IMG/VR virus record: IMGVR_UViG_2529292735_000007
Source: a virus
Lineage: Duplodnaviria; Heunggongvirae; Uroviricota; Caudoviricetes
DNA: 12,295 nucleotides
Strand: one strand, 5' to 3'
The translations under genes and the position numbers were made by a program. Below, one piece after another: positions 1-12,295 of the stretch. Numbering within the stretch: position 1 is the first letter of the stretch; the number at the start of each line of letters is the position of its first letter. Under the pieces are notes generated by a model. The model had not been told where the DNA came from. It saw only the letters and a list, made by a program, of their open reading frames with translations, and did not search any database.

Positions 1-31
1 TATCGCACACGCAAATAACGGAGATACAAAA

Positions 32-442
32 ATGCACGCAAAAGAAGAAGGTATCATCAGAGCACTGAAAGAAATTTCAAAGACAGAAAACGAAGTAGCG
101 AAAAAAGCCGTGGCAAATGCACATATGGACGTCGCAACCCACACACTGATAGTCGCAAGAGTCACGGCAGAAGCAGCCGAAATTATCGCAAAACAGGATG
201 CTGAACTGGCGGTTCTCAGAACACAACCAGTCACCGGACTGGATTTGTCTAACACCGGACGCCTTATTTACACAATTGGCTCGGAGCTACAGCGATACAC
301 CATTATCGCCGGATTACAGGATAAATACCTGATCACTCCTCACCCCATAAGGGAATCAGAAATTCTGACAAATCTCCGCCTGATAGAGCGCTCTCAAGTC
401 GCATTCATTGATGACGCACAGCGCACCGTATTTAACGCATAG
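32..442 (+). CDS. hypothetical protein, first gene of the plus-strand small-gene operon
   Basis: 136-aa ORF from the six-frame track; ATG at 32 preceded by a GGAG-containing stretch; no recognisable catalytic or DNA-binding motif by eye. Confidence 0.45.
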   Translation: MHAKEEGIIRALKEISKTENEVAKKAVANAHMDVATHTLIVARVTAEAAEIIAKQDAELAVLRTQPVTGLDLSNTGRLIYTIGSELQRYTIIAGLQDKYLITPHPIRESEILTNLRLIERSQVAFIDDAQRTVFNA

Positions 443-465
443 GGTTACTGGACAAAGGGGGCGCA

Positions 466-669
466 GTGGCAATTAAGCGTTTTTCCGTCATTCGTTTCAC
501 CTCCAGAGGGCGTGAATACGAAGTTGACGAACGGCTGATTAAAACGATCGACCGTCACCGTTCGCAACCTGACGCGCATCACATTTATCTCACTGACGAC
601 ACTTACTTCTGCGCCACCAACGTGGTGCAGGTGAATCTTATCAGACTGGTACAGGAGTCACGCAGATGA
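466..669 (+). CDS. small hypothetical protein (67 aa)
   Basis: GTG start at 466 with AAGGGGG Shine-Dalgarno about 6 nt upstream; stop TGA overlaps the ATG of the next ORF (ATGA at 666-669), suggesting translational coupling. Confidence 0.4.
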   Translation: MAIKRFSVIRFTSRGREYEVDERLIKTIDRHRSQPDAHHIYLTDDTYFCATNVVQVNLIRLVQESRR

Positions 670-911
670 CCATTCTGGACTACATCGCCGCCAATCCGGG
701 TTGTAGCGGTGGAGAAATCGCCGCAGCACTGAATACCCCAACCACAGCCATTAATGCGGAGTTACGCCGACTCTGGCGCAGCGGTTCAGTCATAAGAAAA
801 GAGCGCAAAACAGGTGGTCGCTTTTCTTACCAGATAAACCCGATGCCGTTCGGGTGCGGCAATCCACTTACCAACATGTTTAACCAGCTACTGAAGGAAG
901 CCAGAGCATGA
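666..911 (+). CDS. putative winged-helix DNA-binding protein (81 aa)
   Basis: Translation LDYIAANPGCSGGEIAAALNTPTTAINAELRRLWRSGSVIRKERKTGGRFSYQI has the helix / helix-turn-helix / beta-wing layout typical of small winged-helix regulators; start and stop both overlap neighbours by ATGA. Confidence 0.5.
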   Translation: MTILDYIAANPGCSGGEIAAALNTPTTAINAELRRLWRSGSVIRKERKTGGRFSYQINPMPFGCGNPLTNMFNQLLKEARA

Positions 912-1207
912 GCACCATCAACCACCAGGAACTACGCGAACTGGCGACTGACCTGCAACGAATGGCAACGCATCAAAAATTACTGGCGTTTCGCGCAATG
1001 CTCTCGCCATCTGCCGTGCTGGCACTGCTGGATGAGCTGGAGCACGCCAGAACCATGGCTCCTGCCATTCGTCTGACGCTCCATCATGAAATCAAGGATT
1101 TCTGCGCGACGCTGGAGTCACCAGGTGAATCAGAAACGCCGGAAGCAATGCAGCAGGAGCTGCTGCAACGCATCGACAACGTTTTCGATTTTTTCCTTAA
1201 CCAGTAA
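908..1207 (+). CDS. hypothetical protein (99 aa)
   Basis: ORF translationally coupled to the upstream gene (ATGA at 908-911); helical, acidic C-terminus; no motif recognised. Confidence 0.45.
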   Translation: MSTINHQELRELATDLQRMATHQKLLAFRAMLSPSAVLALLDELEHARTMAPAIRLTLHHEIKDFCATLESPGESETPEAMQQELLQRIDNVFDFFLNQ

Positions 1208-1221
1208 GGGAGTAAATCACA

Positions 1222-1773
1222 ATGAAACTCAAACCAATGGGTACACCTGGTGTGGCTCCGGCACATGTAAAACCATGGACACAGCAGGAGGATGAACTTT
1301 TAGCCACGTTATACCACTCCCACACAGCGCCGGAGCTGACAAAGCACCTTCAGAGAACCGAGTCAGCAATACGAAGTCGCATCCGTCTTTTGCTCTCTCA
1401 GGGGGTTATTCACGCCAAACGCCCCCACCTGAGCACAAAAGAACTCAGCATGCTCATCAGGAATCGCCACACAAAAACTATCCGGGAACTCGCGAATGAG
1501 CTGGGGCGCTCGCCATCCACGGTGGAACTGAACCTGAGAAAAAGAGGGTATCGGTTCAGGAAATACGGGGAACTCCACCACAGAACCAGATACAGCGATC
1601 ACCTGGTGGAGTTGGTAACTGAACTGCGTGATGAGAAGGGGATGACATTCAGCGAAATCAGGAAGCACATCCGGGACACAGCCGGGATATCCCTTAAAAG
1701 ATGGGTTCCCGCCCGGCTTTACGCACGATATACCGCCGCTGACACCGTGCTTTGCGAACTGCTACCGGACTGA
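1222..1773 (+). CDS. hypothetical DNA-binding protein with three tandem HTH-like repeats (183 aa)
   Basis: ATG at 1222 preceded by AAGGGAG; three roughly 45-aa segments each carrying a T-x-x-E-[LI]-x-x-x-[LIH]-x-R-[ST]-x-x-[ST]-[IV] pattern (TAPELTKHLQRTESAIRSRI, TIRELANELGRSPSTVELNL, TFSEIRKHIRDTAGISLKRW). Confidence 0.5.
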   Translation: MKLKPMGTPGVAPAHVKPWTQQEDELLATLYHSHTAPELTKHLQRTESAIRSRIRLLLSQGVIHAKRPHLSTKELSMLIRNRHTKTIRELANELGRSPSTVELNLRKRGYRFRKYGELHHRTRYSDHLVELVTELRDEKGMTFSEIRKHIRDTAGISLKRWVPARLYARYTAADTVLCELLPD

Positions 1774-2093
1774 GTAACCACTATGCACACACAAAAAAAC
1801 CGCTTGCCATGCCGCAATCAGTCAGGTTACATTTCCGCTGCGCCTCATAAAACGGGTGCCGGGATTGGAACCCCGCTGACAACCAAAGCGCACAACCGCG
1901 CCAGCGGTTTTTTTGTGCGTACCGTATCGCCACGTCTTTTTCGCACACGAATTATGGTGAGGCGTACGGGGCCGACTTCGGTCGGGCCGGGTTCTTTGGT
2001 TGCCGGTAGTTCCAACCCTGTACGTCTCACCACCCCGAGCTTGGAACCTCTGGATGGTGAGTTTTCAAAACTTACAACCAAAGAGGCCACACC
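1774..2093 (+). promoter_or_regulatory. structured non-coding region (candidate small RNA, attenuator or leader) between the small-gene operon and the replication module
   Basis: No ORF with protein-like composition or Shine-Dalgarno; contains a GC hairpin with UUCG loop (CCGAC-TTCG-GTCGG, about 1970..1988), complementary segments GTTCCAACC (about 2009..2017) / TTGGAACC (2041..2048) and CTCACCA (about 2029..2035) / TGGTGAG (about 2055..2061), and repeated CAACCAAAG. Confidence 0.3.
1893..1915 (+). terminator. putative rho-independent terminator
   Basis: ACCGC-gcca-GCGGT hairpin (1895..1908) immediately followed by a run of 7 T (1908..1914); lies about 120 nt downstream of the stop at 1773. 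Confidence 0.4.
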
Positions 2094-2324
2094 ATGGCAA
2101 ACCGCAAACAGCACCGCGCTATCGCGGAGCGTCGTCACATCCAGACTGAAATCGATCGCAGACTCACCCGCGCCGCACACATCGCCTTTATCATGCAATC
2201 CAACACATTGCACAGACTCAACAGCACTATTTCAGCCGACTACTGCGCCGCTGTATTCAGCTATCTGGCGGAAGACCTCCTGTCTCTTCAGGATCTCATC
2301 CAGCAGCAAAACAAACTCCATTAA
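2094..2324 (+). CDS. small hypothetical protein (76 aa)
   Basis: ATG at 2094 with AAGAGG Shine-Dalgarno 7 nt upstream; helical, protein-like composition (MANRKQHRAIAERRHIQTEIDRRLTRAAH...), unlike the overlapping low-complexity 205-aa ORF. Confidence 0.4.
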   Translation: MANRKQHRAIAERRHIQTEIDRRLTRAAHIAFIMQSNTLHRLNSTISADYCAAVFSYLAEDLLSLQDLIQQQNKLH

Positions 2325-2396
2325 TTCCTGTTCCGGGCCTTTCCTGCACCTTGCGGCGGGAGGCCTTCGCACATCTGTAACCAGAGGATTGCCGCA

Positions 2397-2762
2397 ATGA
2401 TTCTCGCCAACGACTTTCTTGAATACCTGCTCAACACAGAGCGTGATCTTGCCGTTCGCGTGCGTGACCGTTATGACATGTACCTGAAATCCCTGCCTGT
2501 ACCGCAGCTCGCTGACGGAAAGATTGTTATTGATGGCCGCTACATGATTGACAGCCACGAGGGAAATTACAGGCTTTACCGCATTGAAGGTGGCACCCCG
2601 TCCGTTATTGGCATTTACCAGCGCCCATCCTCTGCAATCGTCGATGTGATTGCCGACAGCATCCGCATCACACATCGCCATGCCGACACAGAAGACACCG
2701 TGCTGGAAATTCAGCGGCTGGCTGCCGTCTGCCGCGACACCCTGAATGGCATGACGAAGTAA
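2397..2762 (+). CDS. hypothetical protein (121 aa) immediately upstream of the replication initiator
   Basis: ATG at 2397 with AGAGGA upstream; ends 6 nt before the start of the rep gene, consistent with co-transcription; no motif recognised. Confidence 0.5.
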   Translation: MILANDFLEYLLNTERDLAVRVRDRYDMYLKSLPVPQLADGKIVIDGRYMIDSHEGNYRLYRIEGGTPSVIGIYQRPSSAIVDVIADSIRITHRHADTEDTVLEIQRLAAVCRDTLNGMTK

Positions 2763-2768
2763 ATCACT

Positions 2769-5591
2769 ATGACGGCAGAGTACATCAGGGACTGGCAACA
2801 ACCGCGCCACGCGGTGGGGCGTGAAGGAACGGGGATCCCCGCTCCTGAATCCGCGCTTTCCTCCTGGCTGGGTGCCTACCGGGTAGAGAACGAGCGCCGC
2901 CAGGAAATGGCTGATGCGGCGTTCTCCGCCACGCCGCTGGGCAACCTGATTAATAAAAGCCTGGACGCACAGAAAAAACAGGACAAAACCATCACACTGG
3001 CAGGAGACGCCAGAAAACAGGCACGCGGCGCGGTGGATGAAGCCATGGCCTCGCTGCGCCTGCTGCCGTCCTATCTGCGCGATCCGCTTATTCGCCACCT
3101 CTCCTTCCTGCGCAAAAAACAGGAAGCCGATCGCCGGAAAGGCAAAAAGAGCTGGCAGGCGGAACGCTATGCACGCGGAACCCTGCGCAAAATATTCGAA
3201 CGTCTGGACCGCACTGATCACCGCTGGCTGACACCGGATTATCGCTCCCTTGCTGGACGCGAACGCCTGGACGATTTGCTTTACCTGCCGCAGCTCAACA
3301 AACACCAGATACAGACGCTGGCCACCATGACGGCGGCGATGTTCAGCAGCACCTTCGAAAAACTCTGCGATGGCTTTGGCGCGACTGATGGCGAACTGAC
3401 CATGGATGTAACGCTGAAGGCGTATCAGATGCTGGCCCGCATGGCGTTACACCTGCACGCCATGCCTCCACATTATGACGCACTGACAACAGACAAAGAC
3501 CGGAGGAACGAACCGGACACAGAGCTGCTGCCGGGCGCAATCCTTCGCCTGACCTGTGCGGAATGGTGGAAACGCAAACTATGGCTGTTACGTTGCGAGT
3601 GGAGAGAAGAACAACTCCGCGCCGCCTGTCTGGTTTCCAGAAAAACATCGCCCTATCTGAGCCAGGACGCGTTAAGCGAGTTTCGCGCACAGCGCGAGAA
3701 AACACGCGATTTCCTGAAAAGTTTCATGCTGGAAAACGAAGACGGGTTCACGATTGATCTCGAGACAGTGTATTACGCGGGAGTAAGTAACCCGGTTCAC
3801 CGTAAGGCAGAAATGATGGCCACCATGAAGGGACTGGAACTTCTGGCCGAAGCCCGTGGCGACAGAGCGGTGTTTCTGACTGTCACCTGCCCGTCAAAAT
3901 ACCACGCAACAACGGAGAACGGTCATCCGAACCCCAAATGGAACGGGGCCACCATGCGCGACTCCAGCGATTACCTGGTTAACACGTTTTTTGCGGCGGT
4001 CCGCAAAAAACTGAACCGCGACGGCCTGCGCTGGTATGGCATCCGCACGGTGGAGCCTCACCATGACGGCACCGTGCACTGGCATATGATGGTCTTTGCT
4101 CATCCGGAAGAAATCGACACCATTGTGTCCCACGTCCGCGATATTGCCATTCAGGAAGACCGCCACGAGCTGGGCAATGATATTACTCCACGCTTTAAAG
4201 TGGAGTATGTCGACGGCTCAAAAGGCACACCAACCAGCTATATCGCGACCTACATCGGGAAAAACCTGGACAGCCGCGCCGTGGATGGCATCGACCCGAA
4301 AACGGGCAAACCACGCGTTGACCACGAAACCGGAAAATCAATGGCCGAGAGCGTGGAGCGCGCCATCGGTTGGGCACGCCTTCACCGGGTCCGCCAGTTC
4401 CAGTTCTTTGGCATCCCCTCCCGTCAGGTGTGGCGTGAACTCCGCCGCCTTGCCAGCCAGATGGCACGCAACCCGGAAGGCCCGCAACGGCTGAAGGATG
4501 ACGCAATGGATGCGGTACTCGCTGCCGCTGATGCCGGATGTTTTGCCACCTACATAGAGAAACAGGGCGGCGTACTTGTTCCACGCAAAGACTACCTGAT
4601 TCGCACCGCCTACGACCTCGCCGATGAGCTGAACGATTACGGCGAACAGAGTGTACAGATTTACGGGATCTGGTCACCACTCATCGGGGAATCCTCCCGT
4701 GTGTGCACGCACCCGGATAACTGGAAGCTGGTAAGACGTAAACCGGAACAGGAAGGCAGCGCCCACGAAAATGGTTTTGACCTTCAGGGCGGCCCTGCCG
4801 CCCCTTGGACTCGTGGCAATAACTGTCCCAGTGTACAGGAAACAGACAACAACGGGACAGAACAGCCGGAAGAACGGCCAGCACCGTGGCCGCAGCTTCC
4901 TGACGGCATTGAAGTGAATGAATGGATGCACTCACTGAAACGGCACGAACGCCGGGCGCTGATGCGTTCGCTGCGTGACAAACAGGCCAAAAACAGCAGC
5001 GATGAAATGCAGAACTGGACGCAGAGCCGCAAACAGCCGCGGCCTTTGCCTGATAACCACGAGTTACTCGCTAAAGAATGGCGGGAGTCTGCTGAATCTC
5101 TCGGCCTGCATATTGGTGAACAGCAGATGCAGCACCTGTTACGGGGCGGCAGTCTGTACGTTGACGGCAGCATCATTGCACCGCAGGGATTTGAAATTGT
5201 ACGCAAACCGGATACCCGCCCGGACAGCCGAATCACGCAGCTCTGGCAGCGCCTGAGCCGTAATCACGGCGTAAGCAGCACGGAGATCCGCCATAACCCG
5301 GTCGCCAGCTATCTGGAACAGCTGGGGGCATCAGACCCTGAAGCCGCCGCACGCCTGGCATCCACACTTCAGCAGGACCAGAACACCATGAAAACACCCG
5401 TTACCGTGCTTTCTGACATGCTGCGCGCCATCCGCGACGCAGAGCACGCACAGAGAATCAGTGAAACCACTGAACGCGCCCGCCGCAAAGCAGACCTGCT
5501 GCGGGGTGGCCTGACCAGTGGAAACAAAAAACAGACAGAAACGGGATTCACAAATCCCGTAAATGAGCAAAAAACGCGCCGCGATATATGA
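2769..5591 (+). CDS. A: rolling-circle replication initiator (HUH-type endonuclease, P2 gpA / phiX174 gpA superfamily I), 940 aa
   Basis: Translation contains EPHHDGTVHWHMMVFAHPEE (HWH at nt 4077..4085) and the paired active-site tyrosines in SYIATYIGKN (Tyr codons 4239..4241 and 4251..4253, Y-x3-Y spacing as in phiX174 gpA YVAKYV); position upstream of the Q-P-O head genes matches P2-like prophage order. Confidence 0.85.
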   Translation: MTAEYIRDWQQPRHAVGREGTGIPAPESALSSWLGAYRVENERRQEMADAAFSATPLGNLINKSLDAQKKQDKTITLAGDARKQARGAVDEAMASLRLLPSYLRDPLIRHLSFLRKKQEADRRKGKKSWQAERYARGTLRKIFERLDRTDHRWLTPDYRSLAGRERLDDLLYLPQLNKHQIQTLATMTAAMFSSTFEKLCDGFGATDGELTMDVTLKAYQMLARMALHLHAMPPHYDALTTDKDRRNEPDTELLPGAILRLTCAEWWKRKLWLLRCEWREEQLRAACLVSRKTSPYLSQDALSEFRAQREKTRDFLKSFMLENEDGFTIDLETVYYAGVSNPVHRKAEMMATMKGLELLAEARGDRAVFLTVTCPSKYHATTENGHPNPKWNGATMRDSSDYLVNTFFAAVRKKLNRDGLRWYGIRTVEPHHDGTVHWHMMVFAHPEEIDTIVSHVRDIAIQEDRHELGNDITPRFKVEYVDGSKGTPTSYIATYIGKNLDSRAVDGIDPKTGKPRVDHETGKSMAESVERAIGWARLHRVRQFQFFGIPSRQVWRELRRLASQMARNPEGPQRLKDDAMDAVLAAADAGCFATYIEKQGGVLVPRKDYLIRTAYDLADELNDYGEQSVQIYGIWSPLIGESSRVCTHPDNWKLVRRKPEQEGSAHENGFDLQGGPAAPWTRGNNCPSVQETDNNGTEQPEERPAPWPQLPDGIEVNEWMHSLKRHERRALMRSLRDKQAKNSSDEMQNWTQSRKQPRPLPDNHELLAKEWRESAESLGLHIGEQQMQHLLRGGSLYVDGSIIAPQGFEIVRKPDTRPDSRITQLWQRLSRNHGVSSTEIRHNPVASYLEQLGASDPEAAARLASTLQQDQNTMKTPVTVLSDMLRAIRDAEHAQRISETTERARRKADLLRGGLTSGNKKQTETGFTNPVNEQKTRRDI

Positions 5592-5636
5592 AGCGCGCAC
5601 AAAACAGGCAAAAACGGGATTTCAGAATCCCGTAAA
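5538..5636. promoter_or_regulatory. parC-like operator/centromere: two copies of a 20-bp palindrome upstream of parM
   Basis: AAACGGGATTcacaAATCCCGTAAA (palindrome 5541..5560) and AAACGGGATTtcagAATCCCGTAAA (palindrome 5614..5633), 73 bp apart centre to centre, flanked by CAAAAAAC-type A-tracts; the first copy lies inside the 3' end of the rep CDS. Confidence 0.45.
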
Positions 5637-5667
5637 CGATTAATTAATCAACATAAGGAAAAGCGAC

Positions 5668-6627
5668 ATGAAAATTTGTATCGACGACGGCTCCACCAAC
5701 ATCAAGCTGGCATGGACTGAGAACGGCGAACGCCGCAACGCCATCAGCCCGAACAGCTTCAAGTCGGAATGGTCTGCGCCGTTCGGTGGCACGCAGCCCG
5801 CGAACTACATGCTTGATGGCGTGCGCTATGGTTTTGATCCGGTCAGCGATCGCTTTGTCCAGACGACCGACACGCAATACCAGTACAGTGATGTGAATGT
5901 CATTGCCATTCATCACGCACTGGTCAAATCAGGCATCACGCCACAGGAGGTGGATGTGGTTGTCACCCTGCCACTGAGCGAGTATTTCGACACAAACGCA
6001 CAGCCGGACATGGCCAACATCAACCGCAAAAAAGCGAACGTTATGCGCCCGGTGGAGTACCAGAACGGCGAAGCATTCACTATCCGTAACGTGCGGGTTA
6101 TGCCTGAATCCATTCCGGCTGGCTTTAAAGCACTGGCTGACATGAGTCCGTTTGAATCCCTGCTGATTGTGGATTTAGGCGGAACCACGCTGGATGTGGC
6201 AAAGGTTCAGGGACAACTGGCAGGTATCAGCCAGGTGTTTTGCGATCCACACGTAGGCGTTTCCCTGATGGCCGATGCCGTACTGTCGGTGATGGCCACT
6301 AACGGTATGCGTACCAGTCACCACATCGCCAATACCATTATCGAACATCGCCATGATGAAGCCTGGTTGCGCCAACACATCCACAATGACGCGCATTACG
6401 CCAGCCTGATGGCGGTTATTCGTGAAAAGGAAGAAACACTGAAACAACGCGTGATCCGCGCGCTGGCGGGTTTTTCGGGTTACGGACGGGTGATGGTTGT
6501 CGGTGGTGGGGCGGAGATTGTGGCACCCGCTATCCGCGAAGCCTGCGGAGTTAATGCGACTTTCATCGCGGACGGGGTGCCACAGTTTGCTCTGGTTAAT
6601 GGGCTGTACGCAATGGACAAGGAGTAA
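5668..6627 (+). CDS. parM: ParM/StbA-family actin-like segregation ATPase (type II partition), 319 aa
   Basis: AAGGAAAA Shine-Dalgarno then ATG; translation matches plasmid R1 ParM as recalled from memory along its length (ICIDDGSTNIKLAW, ISPNSFK, QYSDVNVIAIHHAL, VMPESIPAGF, LLIVDLGGTTLDV, GVSL, VVGGGAE, LVNGLYA). Confidence 0.9.
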   Translation: MKICIDDGSTNIKLAWTENGERRNAISPNSFKSEWSAPFGGTQPANYMLDGVRYGFDPVSDRFVQTTDTQYQYSDVNVIAIHHALVKSGITPQEVDVVVTLPLSEYFDTNAQPDMANINRKKANVMRPVEYQNGEAFTIRNVRVMPESIPAGFKALADMSPFESLLIVDLGGTTLDVAKVQGQLAGISQVFCDPHVGVSLMADAVLSVMATNGMRTSHHIANTIIEHRHDEAWLRQHIHNDAHYASLMAVIREKEETLKQRVIRALAGFSGYGRVMVVGGGAEIVAPAIREACGVNATFIADGVPQFALVNGLYAMDKE

Positions 6628-6631
6628 ACCA

Positions 6632-6946
6632 ATGACGACACCAACCAGACGGATAAGTTTCTATCTGAAGCCCGCCGCCGTCAATAGTGAACGGAAGGCG
6701 TGTAATTACCTCGACAGCCTGCCAGCCTCTGAACGCAGCCGCGCGCAACGCGCGGCCTTTCTGGCCGGGCTGGCACTCATAAAACGCGATCCTGCATTTG
6801 CCTATTGGTTGGCCGAATGGCCGGAAGAAGGAGCTGCGCCAGCAAAGAATAATATTCAGAGTAAATATGCCAGCACACCTGCCACCGGAAGCAATCACAG
6901 CACTAGCGAGATAAGAAAGAACATTCAGTCATTTTTCCCGGAGTGA
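6632..6946 (+). CDS. parR: ParR-like ribbon-helix-helix centromere-binding protein / partition adaptor, about 105 aa
   Basis: ATG at 6632, 4 nt after the parM stop; N-terminus RRISFYLKPAAVNSERKACNYLDSLPASERSRAQRAAFLAGLALIKRDP resembles R1 ParR (RTIAFKLNPDVNQ...LDSIPQGERSRLNRAALTAGLALYRQDP, from memory); the track ORF 6497..6946 is the same frame extended upstream. Confidence 0.75.
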   Translation: MTTPTRRISFYLKPAAVNSERKACNYLDSLPASERSRAQRAAFLAGLALIKRDPAFAYWLAEWPEEGAAPAKNNIQSKYASTPATGSNHSTSEIRKNIQSFFPE

Positions 6947-6965
6947 AAACAGGAGAGGTGCATCT

Positions 6966-7397
6966 ATGGCAACTATTCCCAAAAAATGGTTACAACGCAA
7001 AATCGCAGACCTTGAATCGTGTCGTGAAGACATCCCATTTGGCCTTGATGAAAACGATCACAATATGTTAATCGCACTGAAAATCGCACTCACATCGCTG
7101 GAAGCGAAACCTGTTGCATGGACTGATGATGAGGAACTGCGTGATGTCAAGCAGTATGGTTTCGGTGAGATATTTCAGTGTCCGCCAGATAAATACGCGG
7201 ACCCGCGCCGTGTTATCCCTATGTATCAAGAGCCGCCAGCGCCAGCAGTACCAGATGGGCTGGTTAGAGCGGTGCGTTTCTATGAACAGGTTAAGCGTGA
7301 AAATCCGCCAGCCGAAACCGGAGCATGGAAAGACGCTGTTGACTGGGTGCTCAAAGAGGCTTGCCAAGCTGTAAACATTGGCATCAAAGGAGAGTGA
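6966..7397 (+). CDS. hypothetical protein (143 aa), accessory-locus cargo gene 1
   Basis: ATG at 6966 with AGGAGAGG Shine-Dalgarno 7 nt upstream; contains the motif IALTSLEAKPVAW shared with the gene at 7690; proline-rich middle (YQEPPAPAVPDG). Confidence 0.6.
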   Translation: MATIPKKWLQRKIADLESCREDIPFGLDENDHNMLIALKIALTSLEAKPVAWTDDEELRDVKQYGFGEIFQCPPDKYADPRRVIPMYQEPPAPAVPDGLVRAVRFYEQVKRENPPAETGAWKDAVDWVLKEACQAVNIGIKGE

Positions 7398-7398
7398 T

Positions 7399-7686
7399 AT
7401 GGCAACTTTGCAGGAATTAATCGACCTGACGCCAGAACAGGAAAAAGCGTGGAATCGCCTTGTGAAGGCTGTAAAGGATTTCAGGGCAGCCGGAGGAAAG
7501 TTTTATAGCGTCCTGGACACGCTGAGCGCATACAACGGCGAGCACGTAGCCAGCATTGATAACGATAAGGGCTACCACACTGCAAGCGTTTATATGCCTA
7601 GCATTGATGCGCCAGGGCTAACCAGTTGGGCTGATGATTGGCACGGCATCACGCTGAAAGATGGCGTTGAAGTGGATGAGGACTAA
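7399..7686 (+). CDS. hypothetical protein (95 aa), accessory-locus cargo gene 2
   Basis: ATG at 7399 (1 nt after the previous stop) with AAAGGAGAG Shine-Dalgarno; acidic C-terminus; the track ORF 7378..7686 is the same frame with an alternative upstream start. Confidence 0.55.
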   Translation: MATLQELIDLTPEQEKAWNRLVKAVKDFRAAGGKFYSVLDTLSAYNGEHVASIDNDKGYHTASVYMPSIDAPGLTSWADDWHGITLKDGVEVDED

Positions 7687-7689
7687 CAC

Positions 7690-7950
7690 ATGACAACTTT
7701 CACCGACAAAGAACTGATTAAAGAAATCAAAGAGCGCATAGGTAGCCTGGACGTGAGAGACAATATTGAACGCCGTGCTTATGAAATTGCTCTGGTATCG
7801 CTGGAAGCAGAGCCAGTAGCATGGATGCATGTAAATAACGGCATCGGAATACCAGCAATAACAATGAGTAAAGAGGTTGCAGAGAGTTGGTTATCAAAAG
7901 GCTGGTATGTCCAACCCTTACATCTAGCCCAGCCTGCATCAAAGCTATAG
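7690..7950 (+). CDS. hypothetical protein (86 aa), accessory-locus cargo gene 3, paralogous motif to gene 1
   Basis: ATG at 7690 with GAGGA 7 nt upstream; contains IALVSLEAEPVAW (compare IALTSLEAKPVAW in 6966..7397); followed by a terminator hairpin. Confidence 0.55.
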   Translation: MTTFTDKELIKEIKERIGSLDVRDNIERRAYEIALVSLEAEPVAWMHVNNGIGIPAITMSKEVAESWLSKGWYVQPLHLAQPASKL

Positions 7951-7960
7951 AAATGAGCCA

Positions 7961-7983
7961 AAACGCCCTCTTCCAGGGCGTTT
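7961..7983 (+). terminator. rho-independent terminator closing the accessory operon
   Basis: AAACGCCCT-cttcc-AGGGCGTTT hairpin followed by ATTTCAA; begins 11 nt after the stop at 7950. Confidence 0.5.
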
Positions 7984-7990
7984 ATTTCAA

Positions 7991-8017
7991 TGCACAATAG
8001 TGCACAAATTTGCACAA
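7991..8017. repeat. three direct repeats of TGCACAA at exact 10-bp phasing
   Basis: TGCACAA at 7991, 8001 and 8011 (tgcacaaTAGtgcacaaATTtgcacaa), one helical turn apart, followed by a T7 run; looks like a phased protein-binding array. Confidence 0.6.
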
Positions 8018-8029
8018 TTTTTTTGAACG

Positions 8030-8441
8030 ACTTTTTGCCCTTCCGGCCCGCGGGGCGACTGGATCCGTCAAGGATCCGTGCGTGCACAAAAAAACGCGTT
8101 TTTTCTGCGCGCAGGTGACGGGGGAACAGCCCGCGTTTCAGGGGGTAAATAGCGTTCCCTTAACGATGTCGCAGCGACACGACAGAATGGCCGTATTTCT
8201 CACGCTGAGCGTGAAAAATACGTGAGGGCTTTTGATTTGATGGGGTGAAAGGTAAGGCCGTCAAAATCGCACTGAGGCGGCGAGAACATGCAGTCAGCGC
8301 AGTGGGATTGCGTAAGAGTCTGACCGTCGATGATGGCAATAAGCAGGAAAGCGTCGTGAAATTATCTGACTGATACAGGAGCTGGAGAGTCGGGGCATAA
8401 ATTTTTTATGCCCCGGCGAAGCAGCAGACAAGCGAAGCGCG
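8030..8441. other. non-coding region downstream of portal gene Q; expected location of cos and packaging signals
   Basis: No credible ORF; contains GGATCCGT direct repeats (about 8062..8079), the perfect palindrome AAAAAACGCGTTTTTT (8089..8104) and a GCGGGG-containing stretch (about 8047..8056) only loosely similar to the P2/186 cohesive-end sequence as recalled; the exact cos site could not be identified. Confidence 0.3.
8392..8414. terminator. palindromic hairpin about 28 nt downstream of the Q stop (possible bidirectional terminator)
   Basis: GGGGCATAAA-ttt-TTTATGCCCC perfect inverted repeat; lacks a clean external U-tract on either strand, so the terminator call is tentative. Confidence 0.35.
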
Positions 8442-9461
8442 TCAGGATGTGGGCTGGGTGTCTAACAGTGCGTAAGGGTTAAAGCGGATCACCTCTTCGC
8501 CAAGCCAGTCATTGATGTGCTTCATGGCCTCCATGACGGGCATCAGCTCGTTAATTGCGTAAACCCGCGCGGCCTTCTCCACATCACCAAGCGCACTTTT
8601 TTCGCCCGGCATCGCCCCCATCAGTTGCGGCGGAACGCGGTGCGCAGCCAGCACATCATCACGGGATGCCGCCTTAACATTCATGAACTCATCTTTTGCG
8701 GTGATCTGCTGGAACGGCAAAATTTGCACCCCCTCTTTGCCCCCGTTGGGCGCATGAATGAGCACGTTTTTAAACGCACCACCACCACGTGCACCCTGTA
8801 GCGTTTCTTTCAGGGAGTCCATGCTTTCGCGGTTTACCTGCGCTGCACCGATGTAGATGATGCACCCGGCGTGGGATCCGTTGTCGTAATACAGTTTTCT
8901 GAACATGTCCGCCGAATGAGACAGGCTGGCCGAGAGTAATGCGCCGAGATATTCCGGCATGCCGTAGATTTCCTGGTTAATGTCAGGATTCATCAGGTGG
9001 CACACTTTGCCAGGGCGAAACTGAAACGCGTCCTTGCCATCCTGCACATACCACCATGATTCAAGATCGCTTCCGCGTCGCATGTATTTCGCCAGGGCGT
9101 GCCGTAATTTAAGCGGTTCGCCGAGCATATTACTCCGAAGCTCAAGGAATGCGTTACCGAACACAAAACAGTCCAGCGCCAGCGCCGAGAAATCCTGCCG
9201 GGAAAGCAGCGGGTGCGGGATGTAGCAACCGAGTAATACATTGCGCTTAAAGTAAAGCGCAGACTGATGCCAGGACGTTTGCCGGGCAGCTCTTGCCAGA
9301 CCGTACCAGTCCACCGGGGTTTCATACCACCGCCCGTTATCAGCACAGTACATATTGTCCAGCAGGTCATGCCCGGTCAGGCGATAAGGCCCATCAAATG
9401 TGAATGCACTGAGCGACGATTCATTCCTGAGCGCATCAGCGAGATCAATGCGTGAACTCAT
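8442..9461 (-). CDS. Q: portal protein (P2 gpQ-like), about 339 aa
   Basis: Long minus-strand ORF directly downstream of the terminase large subunit gene and divergent from scaffold/capsid genes, as in P2 (Q-P leftward, O-N rightward); size matches gpQ; start placed at the first ATG (9461..9459, MSSRIDLADAL...), whereas the track ORF extends to 9572 via a non-ATG start. Confidence 0.8.
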   Translation of the reverse strand: MSSRIDLADALRNESSLSAFTFDGPYRLTGHDLLDNMYCADNGRWYETPVDWYGLARAARQTSWHQSALYFKRNVLLGCYIPHPLLSRQDFSALALDCFVFGNAFLELRSNMLGEPLKLRHALAKYMRRGSDLESWWYVQDGKDAFQFRPGKVCHLMNPDINQEIYGMPEYLGALLSASLSHSADMFRKLYYDNGSHAGCIIYIGAAQVNRESMDSLKETLQGARGGGAFKNVLIHAPNGGKEGVQILPFQQITAKDEFMNVKAASRDDVLAAHRVPPQLMGAMPGEKSALGDVEKAARVYAINELMPVMEAMKHINDWLGEEVIRFNPYALLDTQPTS

Positions 9462-9486
9462 GCGCACTTTTTTATTTTTCTGCTCA

Positions 9487-11240
9487 TCAGAACTCCATAA
9501 CCGTGAAACGCTCGTTTTCTCCTTCGCCGCCAATTGGTTCGTTAATGACAGCAAGCATGGTTGCCCACGCAAGGTCGCCGTGGCTGATCCCCCTCGCGCG
9601 GTCCGTTTCGTAAGTGATAAAGCCGCCCGGTGTTTTCACCTTACGCACGGCGTTAAAGGCTGCGACCAGTTCGCGTTCGGCGCGATCGTATTCCCACCGC
9701 CCGGCACGCATTATTTGCAGCATTTTCAGTACCAGCGACCGTTTTGATGACAGCGTGAAGGTGTACGGAATAGCAGCAGGGAAAAACCGTTTCACTATCT
9801 GATAAACAGCCTCCCGTTCCCGCCCGTCACATCAATGCCGATGTGTTCCACGTTGTAGCGACACGTGAACTCTTCAATGACTCTGGCCTGTTCTTCAAAC
9901 TCCAGCCCCTGAACGCGTCGCGTCTCCACCGTTCGAAAACGGCCACCAGGAACAGCCGGAGGGACCACCACGGACACCGCGCCGCTGTCGCCGTTGCCAC
10001 TGCTGCCGTTTGCGTCATACCCAATCCATACCGGGCGATTCCCCATCGGGCGGGGAGCAAAAGGTTTCCAGTCTTTCCAGTCGTCGTATCCGTCAACACC
10101 GCAGCCAATCAGGATATTCAGGTTAAATGCCGATTCCCCTTCGCGGACAAACTCACACATATAGAGATTGAGGAACTCGTCTTCGGTGTTTTCATCACGA
10201 ATTTCGTCGATATCGGTGTGTTTCCAGCCGTGATTAACCACATCTTCCAGCGTGACAATTTGCCGCCACGTCCGGTCAGGGCAGATAAGCCCGTTATGCA
10301 GCGTTTTCCAGTCCACAGAAAAACGCTGGCGTTTATGCGTGGCCTTTTCTCGTTCCAGCGGTCGCCGTTCCAGTAGGCGTATGCCTCGTGCGTTTCGGTG
10401 GATGGCGTGGAGAAGTAGGTGCGCCGCAGTCCGCTGAGGGTTGCCATAGCGCCAGCCACCTTGCGCAGTTCAGCAAAGCGACTAACCCAGAAAAATTCAT
10501 CAAAATAAAAATTGCCCGTATAGGACTGTGCCGACGCAGCAGAAGTGCCGAGAAAATGCAGCTCTGCGCCGTTTGAGAGGATGATTTTATCGCCCCCTTT
10601 CAGCTCCACATCAACTTCAGCCGCGGCCTTCTGAATAATGCTTTTAAACTGGAACGCCTGACGACGCGACGCAGACAAAAAAATCTGGTTACGCTGGTAA
10701 GGTTGCGCCACATCGTCACGCAGCGCCATCAGCAGTGCTTCCTGTGCAAAATACCAGGTCGCCCCAATCTGTCGGGATTTCAGGATCATCCTGTTACGTA
10801 TCCCGGCTTCCCTGCAAAGGGTCAGGGCGTCAAACCAGCCCCGCTGATGCCACTCCAGCCTGCTGATGATTTTTTCCCGCAGTGCGGCAATCTTGTTCCG
10901 GCGTGAAATGATTTTTTAAGTTTTTTTCGCCCCGGCTTTTCTTTCCTGTGGCCGTCGCATCCGGCTGGTCATTATGCAGTTTTTTAAGCTGCCGGGTCAG
11001 CAGGTCTATTTCCTTGAAGTCACCACCTGTTTTATTCTGTTTTTCAGTAAGCTGGATGAGGCGCGCATCGATGGACTGCGTGACACGCTGCACGGGTGGC
11101 GTTTCATCCCACTGATCGCGTTTTTTCCACGCATAAATCGTGTTCGGGTTTATTCCCATCAGACGTGATATTTCTGCGGGCGGATAACCCTGCCAGTAAA
11201 GTTGTCGCGCACGCTGGCGCACAAAAGCGTCCTGAATCAT
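9487..11240 (-). pseudogene. P: terminase large subunit (P2 gpP-like) split into four reading frames by at least three frameshifts
   Basis: Four consecutive minus-strand ORFs (10830..11240, 10118..10789, 9795..10316, 9487..9795) together span about 588 codons; the N-terminal HTH (YWQGYPPAEISRLMGINPNTIYAWKK), ATPase-like core (LSNGAELHFLGTSAASAQSYTGNFYFDEFFW) and nuclease-like IGIDVTGG sit in different frames; junctions lie at homopolymer runs. Confidence 0.75.
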
Positions 11241-11401
11241 TGCTCCCCCTGAGTAATTACAGGAAGATTACCCGCGCGCGAAACCGTTCTCCTTAACCCC
11301 CTGTTCTGGCTGTTTTCTTACAACAAAAGCCCTTTGTATCAGCCTGTTACGCTTTGCCATCATGACTGAAGAACCAGTCAGAGGGGCAAAAACTATGGCT
11401 A

Positions 11402-12230
11402 ATGAAAAAGACATCCCGCAAAAAGTTTCGCGTGGCTGTCTCCGGATCAACTGTTGATGGACGCGAAATCAGCCCGGTACATCTGCGTGAAGCCGCCGAG
11501 AACTTCAACCCGGATGTTTACGCTGCCCGCGTGAACGTTGAGCACTATCTCTCGCCATGCCCGTCAAGCGAATTTTCCGCAATGGGCGATGTCACCGCAC
11601 TGAGTACGGAAGATATTACGGAAGGCCCGCTGGCCGGACGTACTGCGCTGTATGCAGAAATCGAACCGACCGAGCGCATGAAGCAGCTTGTCGCTGACGG
11701 CAAGAAAATCTATTCCAGTATCGAACTGCACCCGCAGTTCTCCGTTAACGGGCGCGCCTATCTGGTCGGGCTGGCGATGACCGACACCCGGCAAGCCTCG
11801 GGCACTGAGCGCCTGAAATTCACGGCACAGCAACGTCAGGCGGTGATGACGTTCAACAGTGTCCAGGGTGAGGCACCGCTTATTTCCGAAGCCATCGAGT
11901 CTGAAATCATCGAAATGGCAGAACAACGCCAGGAAGAAGGCACCCAGTGGTTTAACCGCGTAATGGGGATTATTGGTCGTGGCCGCAAAAGCGGATGACG
12001 CCAGTTTCTCCCGTATTCAGGAAGCGGTGGAAGGCGTCGCAACGTCACAGGCCGACATTATCGACCGTTTTAATGTGCTGGAAACCCGCCATCAGCAGGA
12101 CCGCCAGAAAATCACGTCACTGACCACAGAGCTGGCAGCACTGAAGGAAAAACTGCGCACGCAGGACGGCGATCCGCAGAACCGCTTCACCGCAACAGGT
12201 GCAGCCTCCGACCAGCTGGCTGACTTCTGA
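11402..12230 (+). pseudogene. O: capsid scaffold protein (P2 gpO-like), interrupted by a frameshift near 11990
   Basis: N-terminus MKKTSRKKFRVAVSGSTVDGREIS and internal YLVGLAMTD resemble P2 gpO as recalled (…FRIGVEGDTCDGRVIS…, …YLVGLAVTD…); the frame stops at 11998 and the homologous C-terminal part (AAKADDASFSRIQEAV…) continues in another frame to 12230; an ATG at 11395 with better Shine-Dalgarno spacing (GAGGGG) is out of frame, suggesting a second indel at the start. Confidence 0.7.
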
Positions 12231-12253
12231 TAAGACAAAGGAGCAAATTTTTT

Positions 12254-12295
12254 ATGAATCTGGTGATGTCAGATATTACCCGCAACAAGCTGGGT
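12254..12295 (+). CDS. 5' end of the next head gene (major capsid gpN expected by synteny), truncated by the window edge
   Basis: AAGGAG Shine-Dalgarno then ATG at 12254, 24 nt after the scaffold stop; only 14 codons visible, so identity rests on gene order alone. Confidence 0.35.
   Translation, partial: MNLVMSDITRNKLG

Follow-up and report, generated by a model that had tools for sequence, protein, structure and literature searches.

A predicted actin-type partition cassette linked to the replication initiator gene of integrating P88-like phages

A 12,295-nucleotide (nt) stretch of a tailed-phage genome (IMG/VR virus record IMGVR_UViG_2529292735_000007; hereafter the window) carries parM and parR, the predicted genes of an actin-type (type II) partition system, beside gpA, the gene of the phage replication initiator. 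Our favoured reading, which we hold with moderate confidence, is that this parMR cassette works as a type II segregation machine, with two sites serving as its centromere, and that it acts on the excised or infecting circular phage DNA. The genes themselves are already known: RefSeq and GenBank annotate them as ParM and as a plasmid partitioning/stability protein, PHROGs holds families for both under the name 'partition protein', and the paper describing a close relative, phiSM, lists a partitioning protein as a 'fitness' factor (PMC6456863). Here, we describe an old phage-specific ParM clade, its fixed linkage to gpA, a candidate two-site centromere, a set of ParR alleles, and a prevalence of about 24% among complete Escherichia coli genomes.

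The window covers part of a temperate P2-like phage of the P88/phiSM type (genus Xuanwuvirus, family Peduoviridae). Citrobacter phage Shae_phiSM (phiSM) matches it at 98.7% identity over 89% of its length and Escherichia phage P88 at 97% over 83%, with P88 and its relatives at about 96–97%, a near-identical backbone that places the window within Xuanwuvirus. Along the + strand, from the left, come small early genes, gpA, parM, parR and three small open reading frames (ORFs); a non-coding stretch follows, then the portal and large terminase genes on the − strand, and then the scaffold gene on the + strand. The features that matter most here are:

2769–5591, + strand: gpA, rolling-circle replication initiator (940 amino acids (aa); PF05840, E 1.3e-130)
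5525–5566, no strand: first copy of a 42-nt direct repeat, containing palindromic site 1, ACGGGATTCACAAATCCCGT (5541–5560)
5598–5639, no strand: second copy of the 42-nt direct repeat, containing palindromic site 2, ACGGGATTTCAGAATCCCGT (5614–5633)
5668–6627, + strand: parM, predicted actin-fold ATPase and type II partition motor (319 aa; Pfam, alignment to R1 ParM, and the ratio of non-synonymous to synonymous substitution, dN/dS)
6632–6946, + strand: parR (stbB), predicted ribbon-helix-helix centromere-binding adaptor (104 aa; PF10784, 2jd3, tail motif)

An earlier note on this DNA, made from its letters alone, had claimed a strong ParM match along the whole protein, and both the match and its coordinates hold exactly. 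Residues 1–157 correspond to the Pfam domain StbA_N (E 1.8e-82) and residues 159–316 to the ParM C-terminal domain PF21523 (E 1.3e-68), while the ParM of plasmid R1, for which a structure has been solved (1mwk), aligns with the window protein from end to end (E 9e-93; 46.5% identity over 318 aa). The nucleotide-binding residues, on whose presence the note had made its reading depend, are all intact on alignment: the motifs IDDGSTNIK, VMPESIPAG, VDLGGTTLD and GGGAE are complete, and D6, D7, G8, S9, T10, E147, D169, G171, G172, T173, T174 and G279–G281 are invariant throughout the phage ParM clade. By these matches the gene encodes a predicted actin-fold ATPase with the phosphate-binding and catalytic motifs of a type II system, and the domain and structure matches of ParM and ParR together lie far beyond chance.

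The parR start codon, an ATG at 6632, lies 4 nt past the parM stop codon, and the end of parM contains a Shine-Dalgarno sequence (AAGGAG). Its product matches the StbB/ParR family Plasmid_stab_B (PF10784, E 2.6e-26) and, over residues 6–61, gives a weak match to the ribbon-helix-helix domain of pB171 ParR (2jd3, E 0.0044), as would be expected of the ParR gene that directly follows parM in a type II system. The PF10784 match and the gpA, portal and terminase context thus bear out the proposal of a ribbon-helix-helix protein after ParM, forming a type II module within a P2-like phage. The N-terminal strand of the protein, its predicted DNA-binding strand, reads TRRISFYLKP, and its C-terminal tail, SEIRKNIQSFFPE, contains the motif N-[AI]-x-x-[LMF]-F that is common to the ParRs of plasmids and those on integrative conjugative elements (ICEs). 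This motif stands at the extreme C-terminus in all 14 of the phage, ICE and plasmid ParRs aligned, and would mark the end that binds ParM.

At least three types of ParR occur beside ParMs that are 98–100% identical: that of the window and of E. coli EcPF14, that of P88 and phiSM (~52%), and that of E. albertii (65% to the window type); the window and its relatives L001, L002, L003 and L012–L014 cover these allele types. DNA homology to most E. coli copies stops within parR, at about 6684–6828. All phage types retain the N-terminal (T)RRISFYLKP and a C-terminal N-I-x-x-[FL]-F-P tail, and the plasmid and ICE ParRs end in the related motif N-A-x-x-M-F. ParR is a mosaic next to a near-constant ParM.

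Each copy of the 42-nt repeat upstream of parM contains a 20-nt palindrome of the form ACGGGATT-N4-AATCCCGT (GGGATT-N4-AATCCC). Site 1 lies 125 nt before the parM ATG, within the last codons of gpA, and site 2 lies 52 nt before it, at 73 bp (seven helical turns) from site 1. The window holds two matches to the palindrome against 0.06 expected by chance, and in four whole phage genomes no other such sites were found. At the proximal site, the arms are unchanged in eight close relatives, with changes confined to the central 4 nt; the one arm change seen, in P88, came without a compensating change. Equivalent sites with one and two mismatches occur at −128 and −55 in a Hafnia phage, and a Plesiomonas phage has a 26-nt repeat (GCGGGACAACA..AACCC) with 72-bp spacing in the same place, making three lineages in which paired sites keep their position and a spacing of 72–73 bp. 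Serratia and Enterobacter phages have instead one long inverted repeat, with arms of 14–20 nt placed 26–28 nt apart.

These sites follow parM and not gpA. A 167-aa ORF separates the two genes in the Hafnia phage, where the sites remain beside parM, and two genes do so in the Enterobacter phage, where the inverted repeat is just upstream of parM. Because the sites stay near parM despite the intervening genes, they belong to the par operon, and we rejected the idea that they form part of the gpA origin. RNA folding over the sites is strong in the window (z = −6.8) solely because the two palindromes are complementary, and the palindromes score as terminator-like on the − strand. However, the equivalent regions of the Hafnia (z = −0.8) and Plesiomonas (z = −1.8) phages fold no better than shuffles and still keep GGG-N10-CCC sites. 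A conserved RNA structure was rejected on these grounds; what is conserved is the pair of GGG-N10-CCC sites and not a hairpin. Site 1 is described here as a candidate ParR-binding site and half of a minimal parC, and site 2 as a candidate ParR-binding site and operator. In the parC of R1, 11-bp iterons stand in two sets of five around the promoter, and a relative in an integrated plasmid has a multi-copy array of TTATCTC-type iterons upstream, with similar copies readable upstream of the ICE copy. The phage lineage would thus have reduced its cis element to two sites.

The cassette is old. Within the phage collection, ParM was confined to 14 P88-like records and one other, the phage-plasmid D6 (47.8% identity). 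In the plasmid collection, ParMs at least 99% identical to that of the window occur in only six records, which are copies of the prophage itself; all other matches (at least 4994 records) are below 60% identity, with a maximum of ~52%, and no plasmid ParM falls between 60% and 99%. The intermediates come from a large protein collection and belong to Plesiomonas (63%), Hafnia (62%), Serratia (57–58%) and Enterobacter ludwigii (54%). All four of these loci sit in P2-like prophages, with int, C and cox present wherever the locus reaches far enough (the Enterobacter locus ends before that side), and their gene order is that of the P88-like phages: gpA, then parM and parR, then the variable genes, and last portal and terminase. 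When a single genome of each species was scanned, E. albertii, Salmonella and a further Serratia joined the list, and every ParM in that scan with at most 52.5% identity had neither gpA nor portal nearby. The ParMs linked to gpA, which come from Escherichia, Citrobacter, Salmonella, Plesiomonas, Hafnia, Serratia and Enterobacter and span 54–100% identity, group as one clade when joined in a neighbour-joining tree (146 of 200 bootstraps). Given this monophyly and the gap between 60% and 99% among plasmid ParMs, we rejected a recent capture from a plasmid.

Selection on parM is strongly purifying. Its dN/dS against the window lies between 0 and 0.10 in all pairs, and the E. albertii copy differs by 26 synonymous changes and a single non-synonymous one. 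Among close relatives ParM is 98–100% identical while gpA is only 82–98% identical, and ParM is as conserved as the portal. Judged from synteny, phylogeny and constraint, the cassette is an old, conserved backbone component of the phage replication module and not as a recent capture or variable cargo.

Several other loci were seen in these searches. Type II partition genes with ParM and ParR 49–50% identical to the query, and with classic TTATCTC-type iteron arrays upstream, also occur inside the chromosomes of Dickeya (L010), in a conjugative element with TraG, TraU and an integrase, and of Mangrovibacter (L011), in an integrated plasmid with Rep3 and ParAB. A 44-kb plasmid of Apirhabdus apintestini (L039) carries at 5992–7001 a parM whose N-terminal part is 62% identical and which a frameshift splits into two overlapping ORFs; there is no gpA or portal within 6 kb of it. 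A 226-kb contig labelled Vagococcus sp. WN89Y (L013, NZ_JBQPOM010000071.1) contains an E. coli-type prophage with ParM at 98% and portal at 99%, and its label probably reflects contamination or a mislabelled assembly.

The phages that carry the cassette integrate. Genes for a tyrosine integrase, the C repressor and Cox are present in both P88 and phiSM, and in E. coli EcPF14, whose cassette is 99.5% identical to that of the window, the prophage adjoins pdxB with int at the junction. We searched 5426 complete E. coli genomes with a query made of the last 92 nt of gpA (its 3' end) and parMR, and found the cassette in 1304 of them (~24%), at 1442 chromosomal places compared with 2 on plasmids; 1278 of the 1305 matching records cover at least 80% of the query, a retention of ~98%. 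A second query spanned the attP junction of one integrase type (the pdxB type). None of the 442 matching genomes with this integrase covers the junction, as an intact attP would, and among the matches listed all stop at the same base, beside pdxB where annotated. Experiments agree: induction of a chromosomal prophage that has attL and attR yielded P88 (PMC5285337), and phiSM lysogenises E. coli K-12 at a defined attB (PMC6456863).

This bears directly on the suggestion in the earlier note that the element is maintained as a phage-plasmid, that is, as a low-copy extrachromosomal replicon inherited by means of ParMRC. The note had named clear chromosomal junctions with an att duplication, together with a lack of stabilising activity, as grounds for refuting its reading; for the first of these, such junctions are present in the relatives (beside pdxB, and as attL and attR of P88), although the window itself stops short of the ends of the element. 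A phage-plasmid replicates autonomously and unintegrated, from a plasmid-type initiator and with no need for an integrase. In the window, P88 and phiSM we found no plasmid-type replication initiator, only the rolling-circle gpA. In favour of this reading are the ParM homologue of phage-plasmid D6 and a circular 34,461-bp record filed as a plasmid (NZ_CP148288.1, L003; E. coli plasmid pZ1323PEC0009-2). The latter, however, holds a P88-like genome in full: integrase, C, cox, gpA and parMR are there, as are all the late genes. An excised genome explains it equally well, and it is probably an excised, replicating phage circle that was assembled separately. With the replicon counts, the integrase and att evidence and the attP-junction search, we rejected the phage-plasmid reading: it is largely refuted as the usual state, and we consider it very improbable. 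A softer form, in which the circle, besides integrating, is carried for some generations as an episome partitioned by ParMRC (a carrier or pseudolysogenic state), is unlikely, the same circular record being its sole hint; if true, such an episomal phase would make P88-like phages a bridge between integrating phages and phage-plasmids.

parM has the same orientation as gpA and follows it after a 76-bp gap, no + strand terminator lies between the two, and a consensus promoter scan of 5300–8500 found none. From the shared orientation and the lack of a terminator and of an own promoter, we infer co-expression of parMR with the early replication operon upon infection or induction.

An intact motor and adaptor, conserved sites, sequence constraint, linkage to gpA and an integrating lifestyle together point to a ParMRC-type machine that acts on the free circle. 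In the mechanism we propose, ParR dimers would occupy the two GGGATT-N4-AATCCC sites that lie just upstream of parM, their C-terminal tails would grasp ATP-driven ParM filaments at the ends, and the filaments would push phage DNA circles apart. P2-type replication gives monomeric double-stranded circles. The substrate would be the free circular phage genome and not the integrated prophage, in the form present after infection and before integration, or after excision while rolling-circle replication by gpA makes monomeric circles. The phage might benefit in two ways: through better distribution or replication of its circles, as with AlpAC of prophage CGP3, and through placement of a copy in each daughter cell ahead of integration or loss, as with SrpMRC of the SXT/R391 ICEs. 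ParR binding to the sites, filament formation, the timing of expression and the benefit to the phage are all inferred steps. Of the roles that the earlier note had offered, the positioning of phage DNA is the best fit.

Several points weigh against this proposal. To our knowledge P2 and 186 do not carry parMR, which is thus apparently not essential to the P2 lifestyle, and high-copy rolling-circle replication in a cell bound to lyse has no obvious need of partition. A filament-capturing ParR complex would have to form on two sites, compared with the ten iterons of R1. The timing of expression is deduced from a lack of predicted signals, and, with the window ending short of int and att, its own state is read from its relatives. 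The literature searched held no experimental study of function for ParM of P88-like phages, Peduoviridae, Xuanwuvirus or CP-933T.

Other roles for the same genes have to be weighed against partition of the free circle. P2 carries tin and old in its variable A-to-Q region, and parMR likewise sits between gpA and the portal, followed by genes that vary; it could therefore be cargo of that region, expressed by the lysogen and repurposed for defence, superinfection exclusion or plasmid incompatibility, the last of which, with exclusion, the earlier note had put forward. Cargo of this kind is recognised by variable occupancy and by likeness to a defence family, and parMR shows neither: it is fixed by the replication module and monophyletic across genera, and at E ≤ 0.01 neither ParM nor ParR nor any of the three ORFs downstream had a PADLOC match. 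The cassette also has no consensus promoter of its own, and its sites are unlike the iterons of the plasmid and ICE relatives examined, which makes cross-binding unlikely. We rejected defence cargo for its conserved position and the lack of a PADLOC match, incompatibility or exclusion finds no support in a backbone element with such sites, and we regard the whole class of explanation as improbable. Slightly less credible is that ParR mainly regulates the end of the early operon while ParM filaments act on the host, for instance on cell shape or division. The ParR of R1 is also an autorepressor, and the two sites, the only ones, are operator-like and close to the parM start; but the putative ParM-linking tail motif in every aligned ParR argues for a DNA-ParR-ParM linkage, and this ParM is closely related to a motor dedicated to DNA segregation. 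Finally, the cassette might be a functionless relic or hitch-hiker of recombination between plasmid and phage, or, separately, the palindromes might serve as RNA hairpins or as terminators of the − strand. The late genes of the window do look damaged, and the strong fold and terminator-like score would suit the RNA version, yet the low dN/dS of parM, its retention in nearly all matching records and the age of the clade speak against a relic, just as the retained sites in non-folding regions and the uncompensated arm change in P88 speak against RNA. We give both versions very little credence. Partition of the free circle remains the reading that we favour.

The region to the right of the cassette is bounded as follows:

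6966–7950, + strand: three small ORFs (143, 102 and 86 aa) with no assigned function; variable cargo and right boundary of the partition system

The genes that follow parR differ between phages: the three small ORFs in the window and EcPF14, others in P88 and phiSM, HicAB in Serratia, and a KAP NTPase in Enterobacter. The variable region therefore starts after parR, or within its 3' half. Positions 7264–7810, most of the last two small ORFs, are ~96% identical to ORFs of the Ea22/DUF551 region of lambdoid Shiga toxin (Stx) phages, and the first and third ORFs have a common N-terminal domain (phrog_660, 5117 and 60). By these likenesses 6966–7950 is cargo swapped between unrelated phage families.

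Elsewhere in the window, positions 7991–12295 (portal, terminase and scaffold) contain 12 single-base insertions or deletions relative to phiSM, P88 and EcPF14, mostly in homopolymer runs, which split the large terminase into four frames and shorten the scaffold ORF; bases 3–6684 have none relative to phiSM. This reflects either decay of the late genes, in a defective prophage whose gpA and parMR remain intact, or a poorer assembly in this part. In gpA, the Pfam GPA domain spans only residues 179–503 of 940, leaving a long C-terminal part without a domain match, and the last codons of the gene overlap the first candidate ParR site. An ORF-poor early stretch gives two Rfam matches above the gathering score on the + strand, at 1840–1914 and 1950–2037, to the isrK Hfq-binding small RNA (66.6 bits) and to C4 antisense RNA (85.3 bits). 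Just downstream, a 76-aa ORF (2094–2324) occupies the position of the 'derepression protein' gene of P88, and together these suggest an RNA-based immunity or anti-repression module like that of P1 and P7.

About a quarter of complete E. coli genomes carry the cassette in a chromosomal prophage, among them O157:H7, O104:H4 and ST131 strains, and the automatic label 'plasmid segregation protein' can mislead plasmid detection and replicon calls. If our proposal is true, P88-like phages would offer a genetically tractable Gram-negative case in which a tailed phage that integrates applies an actin-like motor to its own genome. Their centromere would be much smaller than the R1 one and would give mechanistic work a minimal ParR-centromere complex. 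The proposal would also extend the picture drawn from SXT/R391 and CGP3, of integrative elements that retain plasmid-like partition for their circular phase.

The closest known system is ParMRC (StbA/StbB/parC) of R1 and enterobacterial plasmids, which has a homologous ParM, a ParR of the same PF10784 family with the conserved tail, the same gene order, and cis sites upstream of parM as in the phage. R1, however, is a low-copy theta-type plasmid, whereas the phage cassette sits on an integrating phage with a rolling-circle initiator; its two palindromes 73 bp apart stand in place of the two iteron sets, its ParRs are shorter (102–104 aa versus 116–139 aa), and its ParMs form their own clade. 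The P1-like phage-plasmid D6 (91 kb) has its ParM homologue annotated as a 'StbA type plasmid stability protein', and it presumably persists as a plasmid prophage, in contrast to the integrating P88-like phages. Partition on integrating elements has two published precedents (PMC4489591, PMC4446434), which contradict the premise of the earlier note that an integrated prophage has no need of it. SrpMRC of the SXT/R391 ICEs reduces loss of the excised circle and stabilises a test plasmid, with an srpC that works with four 13-bp repeats (PMC4489591). As in the phage, this is an actin-type partition system on an integrated element whose transient circle is copied by a rolling-circle enzyme; the paper describes SrpM and SrpR as only distant relatives of R1 ParM and ParR (PMC4489591), whereas the phage proteins are close homologues, and SXT/R391 is a conjugative element in which Srp function has been shown, whereas the cassette of the tailed phage is known from sequence. 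AlpAC of the Corynebacterium glutamicum prophage CGP3, induced early and required if the excised phage circle is to replicate efficiently (PMC4446434, PMC5539076), likewise pairs an actin-like filament protein and an adaptor with sites (alpS) upstream of the operon in an integrated prophage. Its filament protein probably belongs to another branch of the actin-like family and its adaptor is a different one, its host is Gram-positive, and CGP3 is large and cryptic, in contrast to the plaque-forming P88 and phiSM.

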